Virus record (IMG/VR): IMGVR_UViG_3300042901_002277 | Length of the DNA: 64,000 bases | Direction: 5' to 3' (one strand) | Source: a virus | In this document: positions 3,020 to 57,828 of the stretch, piece after piece | How positions within the stretch are numbered: position 1 is the stretch's first letter | How the letters are laid out: each line of letters begins with the position of its first letter | Notes under the pieces: generated by a model | The model's input: the letters and a program-made list of their open reading frames with translations, nothing else | Told to the model about the DNA's origin: nothing | The model's database searches: none | Program-made: the position numbers and the translations under genes

Positions 3020-3252
3020 TGGCAAGTGGAAAGCCAGCTAAAAGAAACGTATCAAACACTGTTGTTTCAACACCAAAAATTGACGATGGCCAAAACGTAC
3101 TTTACGTTGGCGCCGGTAAATCTGTGTTTCATAAATGCCCTGTTTGCAGTAAGTCAACAGGTAAGGGAATGGTCAGAGAATACAAAAACGAGCTTTATTG
3201 CTCACGCGGTTGCGTCATGTCGCATAAGTCAAAAACGGAAGTATCAGCATGA
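3019..3252 (+). CDS. Small Cys-rich (zinc-finger-like) protein
   Basis: CPVC...CSRGC; overlapping start/stop with neighbours. Confidence 0.5.
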   Translation: MASGKPAKRNVSNTVVSTPKIDDGQNVLYVGAGKSVFHKCPVCSKSTGKGMVREYKNELYCSRGCVMSHKSKTEVSA

Positions 3253-3518
3253 AAAAGGATTTACTGATAAATGTCTCACTTAGAATTCTTGCTACTTTCG
3301 CCGCATCTGGTCTTGGCGTTATCGGTGCAGGAACTATCGCTGGTGTTCCAGTACTCAAGGCTGTCTTCATGGCTGGAATTGGAGGGGTTGCAGTAGTTAT
3401 CGAAGGTCTCTCTAGAGCGTTCCTTGATGATGGGAAGCTTACAGCATCAGAAATAAACGACGTATTCACCAAAGTCGATAAGAAGCCTGCGAAAGCAAAG
3501 GCGAATGAAACGGCTTAG
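3249..3518 (+). CDS. Holin-like two-TM protein
   Basis: Two hydrophobic helices, basic C-terminal tail, lysis context. Confidence 0.55.
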   Translation: MKKDLLINVSLRILATFAASGLGVIGAGTIAGVPVLKAVFMAGIGGVAVVIEGLSRAFLDDGKLTASEINDVFTKVDKKPAKAKANETA

Positions 3519-17899: not shown

Positions 17900-18089
17900 A
17901 CCAGACACCGGGTCGATAGAAAAATTGTCAAAAAAACGATTTTTTTCACCATCGGCGGCCGGCCCAGTCTTCTGAGAAAAGTTATTTTTTTGCGCATCTG
18001 AGCTGCACGTGAAGTGTTCAAAAAAACTGGAAATCTGATATCGCCCAGAACGTGCACACGAGTCAGCCGTCTGGGTATGATTAGAAATC

Positions 18090-18853: not shown

Positions 18854-19009
18854 GACTGCTCCTTGTTAGTAGTTGTTAGTAATTCTATATCGAATTTAGT
18901 GAATCCCCCCAGCGTTGAAAGGAGGGTAAGGACGCTGAAGGGATTACACCTGCGCCGATTAAAGCGCATGTCGTGAGGCAAGCCGACACCTGCCCCACGA
19001 CACTCCTCG

Positions 19010-36375: not shown

Positions 36376-36628
36376 TTTCCTTACGAGACCAATACTAGTA
36401 CACCCGATACCAAATTTCCAAATTCAAACACAGCCCCGCAAAAGTTTTTTTCATTTAACATACAGATGACATACAGGTAACATACAAATTTTCAGCAGCA
36501 GAAGGGTATGCGGGGCTATTTTGGGCAAAAAATAAACCACACCAAAACTCTACGCAATTTGAAAGGGGTAAAACGCGGAGTAATGGTGTGGTTATTTATT
36601 AGTAGGTATTTCTACCCACTAAAACTTG

Positions 36629-36967
36629 CTACACAATACGAGAGTGTAGTGGTGTCTCAATGTAGATGGTAGGTCGGTCTGAGAACTTGTCCTCAAATAC
36701 TCCGAGCAAGTATGGTGCTACTTCCTCGTTGTACCCATCTGCGATACCGCAAGCCTGTGACTTGGATAGACATGGTAGGTCACGGTAGAGAAAGTCTGAA
36801 CCATCTCCAGTTGGTGACTGAAAGTAAATGCGTACTGCCCATTCTGTAGTTACTCCAAACTCTTTCATGAGTTGTTTTACTACTTCGGCACTAACAATAG
36901 AACCTTTTCCCGATTTCATTACTTGCCTACCTTTCCAGTAGTGAGTGTTTGTTCTAGCACTAGCCAA
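36629..36967 (-). CDS. Hypothetical protein (start likely MKSGK)
   Basis: Coupled ORF. Confidence 0.5.
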   Translation of the reverse strand: MASARTNTHYWKGRQVMKSGKGSIVSAEVVKQLMKEFGVTTEWAVRIYFQSPTGDGSDFLYRDLPCLSKSQACGIADGYNEEVAPYLLGVFEDKFSDRPTIYIETPLHSRIV

Positions 36968-43058: not shown

Positions 43059-44981
43059 GTGCGACTTTACCTTGACCACGACTTATTAGCCCTTGACTTT
43101 CCGTATGACCCAGCACAAGTTGCTGAAGTCAAGTCAATAGCCGGGGCTACATGGGACAAGGTGGACAAACTTTGGAAAGCACCCGTAGCCTCAATTGACG
43201 AGGTGCGAGCATTTGCTATGAAGCATGAGTTTCAGATAACAGACGAAGTGCTTAGGTTTACAGCCCCAAAGAGAGCGTCACGAAAAGGCGTTTATCTCAA
43301 AGGCGACTGGACTTACATCCAATTCCCTTACGACAAGGTTGTGCTCAAAGCAGTAAAGCAAATAGCAGGGGTTACTTGGGATAACAAAGAGATGGCATGG
43401 AGAGCGCCACTCACCTCAACATCTGAAGCAATTGCGTGGGCTAACTCGTTTGGGGTGCTTGTATCGCCCGAAGTACACGGTGTATCTGCCTCGATAACCA
43501 AGAAACTAGATGAACTAAAGGAAGCCTCACGCTCAACTGACGCTGATATAGAAGTGCCTTCACTACAAGGAACGTTATTGCCTTACCAAAGAGCAGGCGT
43601 GGAGTATGCGTCTAAAGCCCGTAGAAGTTTTATCGCTGACGAGATGGGACTTGGAAAGACGATACAAGCGATAGCGACACTGGAATATTCGTCAAAAGAT
43701 AGCGAAGTGTACCCAGCAGTAATTGTCTGCCCCCCTTCACTTGTACTCAACTGGAAGTCAGAGTGGAACAGATGGTTGCCTAACAGGAGGGTTGCCGTTG
43801 TGACCAACCGTAGAGACATGCCAGAGCCCCGTTCGTATGATGTGCTCGTTGTCGGCTACTCAAACATCTCTCACTGGGAAAAGCAACTACTTGCGCATAA
43901 CTCTTATGTATTTGATGAGAGTCACTACGCAAAAAGCCCAACGGCACAACGTACTAAGTCGGCTATAAAGATGGCAAAGAGCGCACCTAAACACGGGATA
44001 GTCCTATGCCTCACTGGGACACCCGTAACGAATAGACCAGCAGAGTACGCCAGCCAACTAGACATAATCGGGAAACTGAAAGAGTTTGGTGGGTTGTGGG
44101 GATTTTATAGAAGGTATTGTTCAGCCTTCCAAGATAGGTTCGGTCAATGGAATATCAGCGGTCACTCGCACCTTGATGAACTAAACGACAGGCTTCGTGG
44201 TACTTGCTATATAAGACGAACTAAGTCGCAGGTACTTACAGAACTCCCACCGGTTATACACAGCACCCTTGTTGTTCAGGGAACTGATGCGGGGCTCAAG
44301 GAGTATCGTAAGGCAGAACAAGACATAATAAAGTACATAACCGACAGAGCAAAAGAGATAGCAATAGAACTCGGGGAGAGCCCGTACTCGGCAGCCGTTG
44401 TGGCGAGAATAAAAGCAGAAAGCAACGAACACCTCGTCAAACTGTCAGTACTTAGACGGCTTGCTGCGAAAGCCAAAATGCCAATGGTTGAGGAGTGGGT
44501 GCAGTCACGCATTGATGATGGCAAGAAAGTCGTAATCGCAGCGCACCATAGAGACGTTGTAGATGAACTCGCACGAAAGTTTGGCAACCTTCGCATTCAG
44601 GGCGGCATGTCGGTTGAGGAAGTGGAAGCACAAAAGGCACGCTTTCAGAACGAACCCGTAGAGACAGCGCCCGTCATTGTGTTGTCTATTCAGGCAGCCA
44701 AGACTGGTCACACACTCACAGCCTCACAAGACATACTTTTCGTAGAACTTCCGTACACGCCAGCAGACCTAGACCAAACTTATTCACGCCTTCATCGCAT
44801 TGGTCAGACTGGAAGCGTTACGACTACTTACATGCTGGTTGACGGGACTATTGACGAGGAAATCTATGCGCTCATAGAAAAGAAGCGCAAGGTAGTGAAC
44901 GCTTCGGTTGAGGGGGGAGAGTTCGCAGCAGGTGGTAACGCAACGCAGTTGGTACTTGACTTGCTCAACAGACATCGATAG
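43059..44981 (+). CDS. SNF2-family ATPase with two tandem HARP-like domains (SMARCAL1-like annealing helicase)
   Basis: ADEMGLGKT, DESH, LTGTP, SRLHRIGQ; duplicated FPYD..V..VK.IAG.TWD....W.AP N-terminal repeats. Confidence 0.9.
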   Translation: MRLYLDHDLLALDFPYDPAQVAEVKSIAGATWDKVDKLWKAPVASIDEVRAFAMKHEFQITDEVLRFTAPKRASRKGVYLKGDWTYIQFPYDKVVLKAVKQIAGVTWDNKEMAWRAPLTSTSEAIAWANSFGVLVSPEVHGVSASITKKLDELKEASRSTDADIEVPSLQGTLLPYQRAGVEYASKARRSFIADEMGLGKTIQAIATLEYSSKDSEVYPAVIVCPPSLVLNWKSEWNRWLPNRRVAVVTNRRDMPEPRSYDVLVVGYSNISHWEKQLLAHNSYVFDESHYAKSPTAQRTKSAIKMAKSAPKHGIVLCLTGTPVTNRPAEYASQLDIIGKLKEFGGLWGFYRRYCSAFQDRFGQWNISGHSHLDELNDRLRGTCYIRRTKSQVLTELPPVIHSTLVVQGTDAGLKEYRKAEQDIIKYITDRAKEIAIELGESPYSAAVVARIKAESNEHLVKLSVLRRLAAKAKMPMVEEWVQSRIDDGKKVVIAAHHRDVVDELARKFGNLRIQGGMSVEEVEAQKARFQNEPVETAPVIVLSIQAAKTGHTLTASQDILFVELPYTPADLDQTYSRLHRIGQTGSVTTTYMLVDGTIDEEIYALIEKKRKVVNASVEGGEFAAGGNATQLVLDLLNRHR

Positions 44982-45032
44982 CCCCGGCCTATCGTTTTAG
45001 AAATTTGGTATTTGGCTTGCTAAGCTTGCGTT

Positions 45033-45255
45033 GCCGCAAGGCACGAAGCGAAAGGGGCAAAAGAAACTAGGTATTCCTCCTGCAGGGGGCTTTATTAACG
45101 AAGTCGGCATGGCGACCGACAGGCCTAGGTTCTCCCTCTAGCCGAGAGAAGGCAAGGATACGCGAGGTGGCGTGTGTACACACGGCAGCCAAAAGGCAGT
45201 GCCCGAAAGGGACGCTTGAACCATCTCGCTAAGTCCTTGCTCTTTTTTCGGTTTT
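45033..45255 (+). ncRNA. Novel structured non-coding RNA (about 220 nt)
   Basis: Downstream of a repeat-class promoter (box 44995-45012, TAAGCT 45021-45026); no ORF of note; nested long stems, GNRA loops, terminal U-tract. Confidence 0.75.
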
Positions 45256-45265
45256 GTGGCGGGGC

Positions 45266-45688
45266 TTACTCGGCTTCTTTGGTTGGGACTCTGCCCATCA
45301 GTTCGTCAGCAATTAGTTTTGCGTACTTTCTGCGCAGTTTCCAGACTTTTTGGTTCATTTCAGCCATTGCGTCAGTCGTTCGTGCCTTCTTTATGCTGTC
45401 GCTGTCAAACACGCCGTACTTCTTGAACAAGATGTCGTCAATGTCATTGTTTTCTATCATTATGTCCGTAATCCAATGGCCCCGCTTGTCAATGCTAAGC
45501 AGAAGTTCGCAAAGACCTTCAAATCCGAACTCGTTATAGACACGATTGGTAACTAAGTCACAGAAATGCGCACGATACATCGTTTCTGCTTCAGCGGTGT
45601 GGCTCATAAACTCACTCAGCCATACGGCAAGCTCTTCTTTTGACGGAATATCGCCGTCTTCACTGTCAAACTCAAAGTCGTCTTCCAT
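45266..45688 (-). CDS. Hypothetical acidic protein
   Basis: 140-aa ORF with SD. Confidence 0.6.
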   Translation of the reverse strand: MEDDFEFDSEDGDIPSKEELAVWLSEFMSHTAEAETMYRAHFCDLVTNRVYNEFGFEGLCELLLSIDKRGHWITDIMIENNDIDDILFKKYGVFDSDSIKKARTTDAMAEMNQKVWKLRRKYAKLIADELMGRVPTKEAE

Positions 45689-52411: not shown

Positions 52412-52474
<63 letters not shown>

Positions 52475-52484
<10 letters not shown>

Positions 52485-57318: not shown

Positions 57319-57528
57319 ATGTCTGAATACAATAAACTCAAGAACAGCGGCCTTGGTCGTGGTCGTCCAAAACTCAATGAAGAAGAGCGCATTTTGCGGA
57401 AGCAGATGAACTCAGTGCGCCAAGAAGCTCGCAGACGAGCGCATCTTGTGCTTCAGCATCGTCATCAGGATGAGTACAATAAGATTTTTGAAGAAGAATT
57501 CAAATCTCTTAGCAAAAAGAGCCGTTAG
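57319..57528 (+). CDS. Small basic protein with AT-hook-like GRGRPK
   Basis: SD AAAGGAG; GRGRPK. Confidence 0.6.
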   Translation: MSEYNKLKNSGLGRGRPKLNEEERILRKQMNSVRQEARRRAHLVLQHRHQDEYNKIFEEEFKSLSKKSR

Positions 57529-57627
57529 TTTTATTTCTGCTCCTGGAAGTCTTTATCGACTTCCGGGGGCGGAACATCATGAACTAGTTCGCCAGTTTTA
57601 AATCTTAGAATAAGGGGCGGAGGTTCT

Positions 57628-57828
57628 TCAGGGGTACTCAATGTTGCCACTTTTCATTGAGCCTCTACCCTTTTTTGAGGGCTTCATAACTTTTGACTTT
57701 GATTTTCCATATTGAGATTCTAACCATTCGTCAAAGTCGTCTACTTCTCCCTGGCTTGAAATCACATATTTTTCGTATTGTTTTATAAGCCCAACGAGCT
57801 CGTCGTCTTCTTCGTCAAATCTTGGCAT
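57628..57828 (-). CDS. Small hypothetical protein
   Basis: Coupled ORF. Confidence 0.5.
   Translation of the reverse strand: MPRFDEEDDELVGLIKQYEKYVISSQGEVDDFDEWLESQYGKSKSKVMKPSKKGRGSMKSGNIEYP

Follow-up and report, generated by a model that had tools for sequence, protein, structure and literature searches.

The SNF2-type helicase gene (43059 to 44981, + strand) and a convergent gene encoding a 140-aa protein (45266 to 45688, − strand) enclose a gap of 284 nt, measured from stop codon to stop codon, in which the RNA unit described here is located. The window, i.e., the whole stretch of 64,000 nucleotides that was analyzed, is the minus strand of bases 64562 to 128561 of a 160,449-bp IMG/VR record from an uncultivated lake phage, which has direct terminal repeats and a completeness rating of 100%. 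Genes in the window encode WhiB, the SNF2-type helicase, a DUF932 protein, a primase/helicase, and a tRNA, and this gene content suggests that the virus is actinophage-like. The gap is bracketed by two heptamers, AGCCCCG (44980 to 44986, + strand), which overlaps the stop codon of the SNF2 helicase gene, and CGGGGCT (45260 to 45266, + strand), which adjoins the stop codon of the convergent 140-aa gene. The sequence elements named in the initial annotation, comprising the promoter, hairpins, Shine-Dalgarno (SD) sequence, stems, and heptamers, were each recovered where they had been placed.

A copy of the predicted phage promoter, a motif repeated genome-wide, occupies positions 44995 to 45026 on the + strand and consists of the box TTTTAGAAATTTGGTAT (44995 to 45011), 9 nt, and the −10 element TAAGCT (45021 to 45026). 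The motif, TTT-G/A-GAAAT-T/C-TGGTAT followed after 9 nt by TAnnnT, is present in 30 copies in the 160-kb genome, all of which fall in the cassette-rich part of the 64-kb window; with three mismatches or fewer allowed, it has 10 matches in the window versus 0.02 expected. The copy at 44995 to 45026 retains every core position, and its position weight matrix score of 33 bits is below the median of the others (44.9; range, 5.2 to 49.4). The other strong copies are followed about 20 to 110 nt downstream by an SD sequence (GAAAGGGG or AAGGAG) and, 6 to 9 nt past it, by ATG, GTG, or TTG. In the closest complete relative (G001), an ORF follows each of the 29 such promoters. The copy studied here is the sole strong one lacking a downstream start codon and ORF. 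The version of the promoter box differs between the two closest complete genomes in all copies, with TTGGAAATTTGGTAT in about 30 copies of the studied genome (window positions 18000 to 50000) and TTGTAAATCTGATAT in the 29 copies of G001 (L126 to L128), and this concerted switch suggests that the sites are recognized by a phage-encoded factor co-evolving with them.

Downstream of the promoter lies a cassette leader (45025 to 45044, + strand) common to the relatives, among which 21 distinct leaders were aligned. The leader contains the 5′ hairpin GCC-GCAA-GGC (45033 to 45042) and can form two mutually exclusive hairpins, CUUGCG-UUGC-CGCAAG or UUGCC-GCAA-GGCA(C) with a GNRA loop, and each alternative has one covarying pair. 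The palindrome CTTGCG-N4-CGCAAG (45025 to 45040) overlaps the −10/+1 region of the slot promoter, and its covarying pair is G-C in 12 leaders and A-T in 8; in the competing GNRA hairpin UUGCC-GCAA-GGCAA, the pair appears as G-C, C-G, and A-U. As far as the alignment tells, this covariation fits a leader that is transcribed and conserved or, alternatively, a palindromic operator, and the palindrome could act as an operator or as a leader switch. Compared with the 21-leader consensus, the leader of the RNA-bearing genome has a 7-nt deletion. The leader is followed by an orphan SD sequence, GAAAGGGG (45050 to 45057, + strand), with no ATG, GTG, or TTG 3 to 13 nt past it, where CAAAAGAAACUAGG comes next. 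Gene callers applied to three independent assemblies called no gene in the gap, in agreement with the initial annotation, which had found no ORF behind this promoter.

Cargo of the slot in related phages

Related loci, from lake metagenomes, were fetched via the helicase (56 loci) and via the 140-aa protein, which gave 19 viral and 11 metagenome loci. Nearly identical versions of this protein, located in assemblies from ENA, Logan, and JGI, led to 26 further loci. Across about 70 related loci, the slot holds a small protein gene or nothing, and the RNA is found only in the studied lineage. A 58- to 62-aa acidic ORF (MEQWQEEGF...) is the cargo in about 20 loci; about 15 loci have a ~73-aa ORF (MKRTIVWRL...) instead, some have other ORFs, and a few have longer variants. 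All of the 11 metagenome and 26 variant-protein loci examined by the slot-based search carry protein cargo. Three viral loci (L006, at 3220 to 3260, L007, and L029) have an empty slot reading AAGCCCCGG-ATTT-TACTCGG, in which a single AGCCCCGG is kept ahead of ATTT-TACTCGG. AGCCCCG is found at the slot's left edge in every relative, empty sites included, and filled slots lie between AGCCCCG and CGGGGCT and have in common the promoter, leader hairpin, and SD sequence at the left and GTGGCGGGGCTTACTCGG at the right. The slot is thus polymorphic, being empty or occupied by one of at least three unrelated protein cargos or by the RNA, and these phages show the features of a mobile cassette, i.e., repeated modules with insertion, deletion, and replacement of cargo at the borders among relatives. 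A 372-nt interval without a called gene at positions 1324 to 1695 of L096 to L101 turned out to be the ~73-aa cargo, cargo B, with a GTG start; that it had been overlooked by gene callers indicates that small cassette genes are under-annotated in these phages.

In the RNA-bearing genome, homology to the relatives stops where the start codon would lie and picks up again past the U-tract at GTGGCGGGGCTTACTCGG, indicating that about 190 nt of unrelated sequence replaced a gene together with its terminator. The locus L080, whose 140-aa protein is 99% identical, still has the protein cargo in its slot, which indicates that the replacement was recent. Together with the protein cargo or empty sites in the ~70 related loci, this identifies the RNA as a recent cargo replacement in one lineage. 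The RNA genotype was present in at least three samples, in assemblies of 159 to 160.5 kb, with 100% identity across 300 nt; JGI 3300042399 and 3300044533 and ENA ERZ28008667 represent lakes from which it was obtained. Such identity in three independent assemblies makes an assembly artifact unlikely, and it also means that there is no variation to analyze.

No homolog of the RNA was detected by blastn and megablast searches of 50,697 phage records, by nhmmer and blastn-short over the 56 related loci, or by blastn of the cargo against five whole related virus records. A covariance model built from the single sequence (R1) found none in the genome of the phage itself, in 14 related records taken whole, or in 76 loci. 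Exact 18- to 26-mers sought in IMG/VR, JGI metagenomes, and GTDB genomes yielded no homolog and two matches in unrelated coding regions, and architecture patterns in which only the loops, junction, and receptor were fixed gave three matches, none of which folds. Comparison with the ancestral cargo revealed no similarity of sequence or peptide that would betray a coding remnant in the RNA unit. The unpaired parts of the RNA have 27 complementary 10- to 12-mers in the phage genome, compared with about 30 expected, i.e., no excess.

Predicted fold of the RNA unit

The 238-nt stretch has a minimum free energy (MFE) of −102 kcal/mol, with a z score of −4.5 for the + strand, compared with −2.1 for the − strand. 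The initial annotation had described the whole unit as highly structured, a description that holds for one of its two domains. Domain 1 (45062 to 45133, + strand) is a stem, AGA..CUAGGU/GCCUAG..UCU, around the hairpins CCUCC-UGCA-GGGGG and GUCGG-N8-CCGAC, with pair probabilities of 0.88 to 0.99; folded alone (45058 to 45136), it has a z score of −1.2, and 19 of 200 shuffles fold equally well. On this prediction, domain 1 may be a linker, and its significance is uncertain. The RNA bears two pyrimidine tracts resembling the anti-SD sequence of 16S rRNA in addition to the SD GAAAGGGG, namely, CCUCCU (45077 to 45081) and CUCCCUCU (45132 to 45139), the second of which pairs with the SD at a probability of 0.39.

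Domain 2 (45141 to 45256) carries the structural signal, with an MFE of −60.9 kcal/mol, a z score of −7.3, and an MFE structure that makes up 47% of the ensemble; a second computation against dinucleotide shuffles gave a z score of −8.1. Six of its 43 pairs are G-U, and the fold of its minus strand is 16 kcal/mol weaker, so that the + strand, which is the one that the promoter faces, is favored, as had been proposed from the G-U pairs in the initial annotation. The outer stem P1 has 20 bp, its 5′ strand (45140 to 45159, + strand) pairing with 45233 to 45253 around one bulged U (45241). The 3′ strand of P1, GUCCUUGC-U-CUUUUUUCGGUU, together with its U-tract (45233 to 45256, + strand) is likely an intrinsic terminator: UUUU follows the stem at 45252 to 45255, and six further U residues lie within the 3′ strand. 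A consensus terminator scan with a loop limit of 8 nt does not list P1, whose "loop" is longer.

Above P1 and separated from it by a 2×3 internal loop, P2 (GCGAGGUGG/CCAUCUCGC, 45162 to 45170 and 45221 to 45229, + strand), of 9 bp, closes a predicted four-way junction with three further + strand arms. These arms are P3 (45171 to 45184), a perfect 14-nt palindrome, CGUGUGUACACACG, that forms 5 bp and a GUAC loop; P4 (45188 to 45197), with 3 bp and an AAAA loop; and P5 (45198 to 45216), with 7 bp, a GAAA loop at 45205 to 45208, and a bulged A at 45212. The junction core P2 to P5 (45162 to 45229, + strand) folded alone has an MFE of −33.5 kcal/mol, a z score of −3.7, pair probabilities of 0.95 to 1.00, and an MFE structure accounting for 68% of the ensemble. 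The GUAC loop of P3 is self-complementary and its stem is palindromic, and two copies of the RNA could in principle pair with each other. The linkers between the arms measure 0, 3, 0, and 4 nt, lengths at which P2 and P3 should form one stack and P4 and P5 another.

Other intergenic spots of the genome reach z scores of −4 to −7 with sets of simple long hairpins that have 4- to 7-nt loops and U-tracts, which are by their predicted folds ordinary terminators. Among the stable intergenic elements of this genome, domain 2 is the only one that forms a single multi-branched structure. Very stable tandem long hairpins (z scores of −6 to −7) occur between genes at 18885 to 19000 (− strand), 36525 to 36640 (− strand), and 57515 to 57630 (+ strand), and two of these three sites show anti-SD loops resembling UUACCC(U)CCUUUCA.

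A search of the whole window against Rfam 15 at the gathering threshold returned a tRNA (52412 to 52484) as its sole match, and the region itself, searched at E values up to 10, gave only chance-level scores for DUF3800-VII (16.8 bits; cutoff, 36.2), ctRNA_p42d (13.1), and Six3os1_1 (10.1), so that the unit matches no Rfam family at threshold and the initial annotation's failure to recognize a known family is upheld. Several specific candidates were also rejected. For the DUF3800-VII RNA (RF02967), no PF12686 match was found in the 160-kb genome at E values up to 1, a search in which control genomes matched. For a tRNA or transfer-messenger RNA, ARAGORN found none in 44800 to 45500, and each of the three arms ends in a tetraloop, the linkers being 0, 3, 0, and 4 nt long; given this and the Rfam result, the mimicry of a tRNA or Y RNA that had been suggested for the element was not corroborated. 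A riboswitch was rejected since nothing lies downstream in the sense orientation, the next gene on the + strand side being convergent, and the ensemble contains no competing structure.

GAAA tetraloop and receptor-like internal loop

The internal loop between P1 and P2, in which 5′-U45159 A C G-3′ faces 5′-C45229 U A A G45233-3′, resembles the 11-nt receptor of GAAA tetraloops. On the + strand, the site reads GCUAAG (45228 to 45233) over UACGC (45159 to 45163), versus CCUAAG/UAUGG in the canonical receptor, as judged by motif comparison. Mutagenesis of the canonical receptor has shown that its critical elements include C2:G10 as the A-minor pair, U3-A8 as the handle, A4-A5 as the platform, and G6:U7 as the wobble (PMC2275092). 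Each of these has a counterpart in the phage element, as C45229:G45162, U45230/A45160, A45231-A45232, and G45233:U45159, respectively, and the site has the 3×2 internal loop of the receptor with helices on both sides. There are two departures, the top pair C1:G11 being flipped to G45228:C45163 and position 9 being C45161 instead of U. In tectoRNA assays, C1:G11 mutants lose at least 1.73 kcal/mol (PMC2275092). U9 is flipped out in the receptor, and one variant studied as a folding receptor is CCUAAG_UACGG (bioRxiv 10.1101/2024.03.11.584472).

The GAAA loop that could serve as the partner caps the 7-bp P5 arm, next to the 9-bp P2. With the stacking expected from the linkers, P5 should lie antiparallel beside P2 with its loop reaching the receptor, an arrangement that is proposed on geometric grounds. 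Over the two strands of the 160-kb genome (320 kb), the receptor pattern with 3-bp flanking helices occurs only once, in this element. Shuffled genomes contain about 2.8 such sites each, of which 0.15 also enclose a GAAA hairpin, and a receptor site with a GAAA hairpin was not found in about 480 kb of related loci. The likeness of tetraloop and receptor is, for a motif recognized post hoc, strongly suggestive of a selected tertiary fold, and the pair of motifs adds weight to the prediction of a real folded RNA.

Interpretation and comparison with known systems

The unit is interpreted as a stand-alone noncoding cargo of a mobile promoter cassette, a reading to which we assign a probability of about one-half, and it is best regarded as a candidate new family of structured phage RNA with one member. 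The phage promoter at 44995 to 45026 would drive a transcript of about 220 nt on the + strand, from about 45033 to 45255, which would begin with the leader common to the slot, i.e., the 5′ GNRA hairpin and then the orphan SD, and continue through the weakly structured linker of domain 1. Its 3′ end would be a 116-nt module in which the 20-bp P1 and the U-tract terminate transcription and protect the 3′ end, and the apex of this module would be the 70-nt four-way junction with P2 stacked on P3 and P4 on P5. Docking of the P5 GAAA loop into the 11-nt-type receptor at the P1/P2 boundary would clamp the junction in one rigid shape. The RNA would then most likely work by its shape, with a protein of the host or phage, or some other macromolecule, as its binding partner, and not by base pairing or translation. 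More tentatively, and with appreciable doubt, the 70-nt junction clamped by a tetraloop-receptor contact may found a new class of compact, tertiary-folded phage RNA, such as a decoy for a protein, an aptamer, or a small ribozyme, that is delivered as mobile-cassette cargo.

The most serious competing explanation is that the cassette is dead: recombination would have swapped out the ancestral small gene and destroyed its start codon, a remnant would be left that is either transcribed or silent, the 3′ hairpin would be merely the terminator between two convergent operons, the resemblance to a tetraloop and receptor would be coincidental, and nothing would act in trans. Such an emptied cassette would account for the restriction of the element to a single lineage, with protein cargo or an empty site in all other relatives, for the orphan SD and the 7-nt leader deletion, and for a domain 1 fold that is not significant. 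In addition, long terminator hairpins with U-tracts are normal in this genome, and the frame from 45061 stays open up to a TAG at 45139 to 45141, with the stop adjoining the stem as it would for a gene. However, a terminator can do without a 70-nt four-way junction in its loop, and the other terminators of the genome are simple hairpins with 4- to 7-nt loops. A receptor with a GAAA hairpin is expected about 0.15 times anywhere in a shuffled genome, and here the two occur within one element, and relatives with an empty slot lack any terminator there. The absence of similarity to the ancestral cargo also indicates that the RNA is an acquisition and not a product of decay. Because of the singleton status and the unremarkable domain 1, the chance that the cassette is dead is nevertheless kept at roughly one in four.

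A catalytic or ligand-sensing RNA, i.e., a self-cleaving ribozyme or an aptamer that tunes termination and, through it, antisense read-through into the operon of the 140-aa and DUF932 genes, is improbable. Tetraloop-receptor clamps are typical of both kinds of RNA (PMC2275092), the junction is placed inside the terminator stem so that its folding would stabilize P1, and what follows on the + strand is only the antisense of convergent genes. Against this, no ribozyme or riboswitch family matched at E values up to 10, no pairing that could act as an anti-terminator is apparent, P1 with its 20 bp is stable alone, and there is no downstream gene in the sense orientation; for a ribozyme, 3′ terminators have been argued to be at odds with self-cleavage in comparable motifs (Weinberg et al., PMC5737381).

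It is very unlikely that the unit is a tiny protein gene, which could be either the + strand frame of about 26 aa (45061 to 45141, with a noncanonical start) or a 28-aa − strand ORF (45224 to 45138) cotranscribed with the 140-aa gene. Both frames are open, and the ATG of the − strand ORF has AAGGA, a plausible SD, 9 nt ahead. The + strand frame, however, has no start codon at a suitable distance from its SD, an open frame of 27 codons has a chance expectation of about 27%, and the − strand ORF lies wholly within the palindromic structure. No similar peptide is encoded in the relatives or elsewhere in the phage's own genome, an overlapping 41-aa antisense ORF had no similar peptide in the protein collection probed with it, and nothing was called in the three assemblies. 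From its placement between inverted heptamers, the unit could be imagined to work as DNA, for instance as a recombination site, an origin, or a cruciform bound by protein, and this is scarcely credible, given that the G-U pairs make the fold strand specific, that the heptamers flank every cassette regardless of its cargo, and that an intact promoter is directed into the element.

Read as the noncoding cargo of a cassette, the element has its closest known counterparts, by analogy of architecture, in the orphan RNAs with complex folds and 3′ Rho-independent terminators, including DUF3800-I and drum as well as FuFi-1 and skipping-rope (Weinberg et al. 2017, PMC5737381). Like these, it is predicted to be a stand-alone multi-branched fold, of a complexity that hints at a sophisticated function, with its own terminator outside 5′ untranslated regions; unlike these, which have many covarying homologs and gene associations, the phage RNA is a singleton. 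The 11-nt GAAA receptor contact is known from group I and group II introns and RNase P (PMC2275092), with which the phage element shares the GAAA loop, the C[UAA]G/U[AN]G internal loop, and helix lengths that would permit side-by-side docking. It differs from the RNAs known to bear the receptor in its outer pair, G:C instead of C:G, and in having C instead of U at position 9, and its docking is predicted from the fold. The contact is a motif and not a family, and the ~75-nt phage RNA that hosts it matches no RNA known to carry it.

As a genomic arrangement, the cassettes recall the PeSL cassettes of T4-type phages, in which repeated promoter/stem-loop modules lie beside small variable genes (PMC2839356, PMC4122927). 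There, as in the slot studied here, close relatives differ exactly at the modules by insertion, deletion, or replacement (PMC2839356, PMC4122927), and the abstracts of the two reports hold no description of noncoding cargo. The cassettes of the lake phage differ from PeSL cassettes in their promoter motif, in their occurrence in an unrelated, WhiB-bearing, actinophage-like phage, and in the AGCCCCG/CGGGGCT brackets. The RNA-bearing phage is abundant enough for complete assembly from several lakes. Phage-encoded stable structured RNAs whose role is structural or unknown include T4 RNAs C and D and the phi29 pRNA. The unit would resemble them as a compact, untranslated RNA of 100 to 200 nt with a predicted promoter of its own, and it differs from them in having no sequence or structure match with them and in lying outside a tRNA cluster and in a genome that is not phi29-like.

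Being confined to a single recent lineage, the RNA could be evolutionarily transient. If the cassette is dead instead, the locus would provide a clean case of cargo replacement at defined junctions. If the noncoding-cargo reading is true, a very small and readily synthesized RNA with a textbook tertiary clamp would join the orphan structured RNAs, and with an element of about 115 nt, in vitro tests would be cheap. The hyperplastic regions of phage genomes are viewed as shuttles for small accessory proteins. A cargo RNA folded for a purpose would widen this view, in that such cassettes would also traffic functional RNAs.
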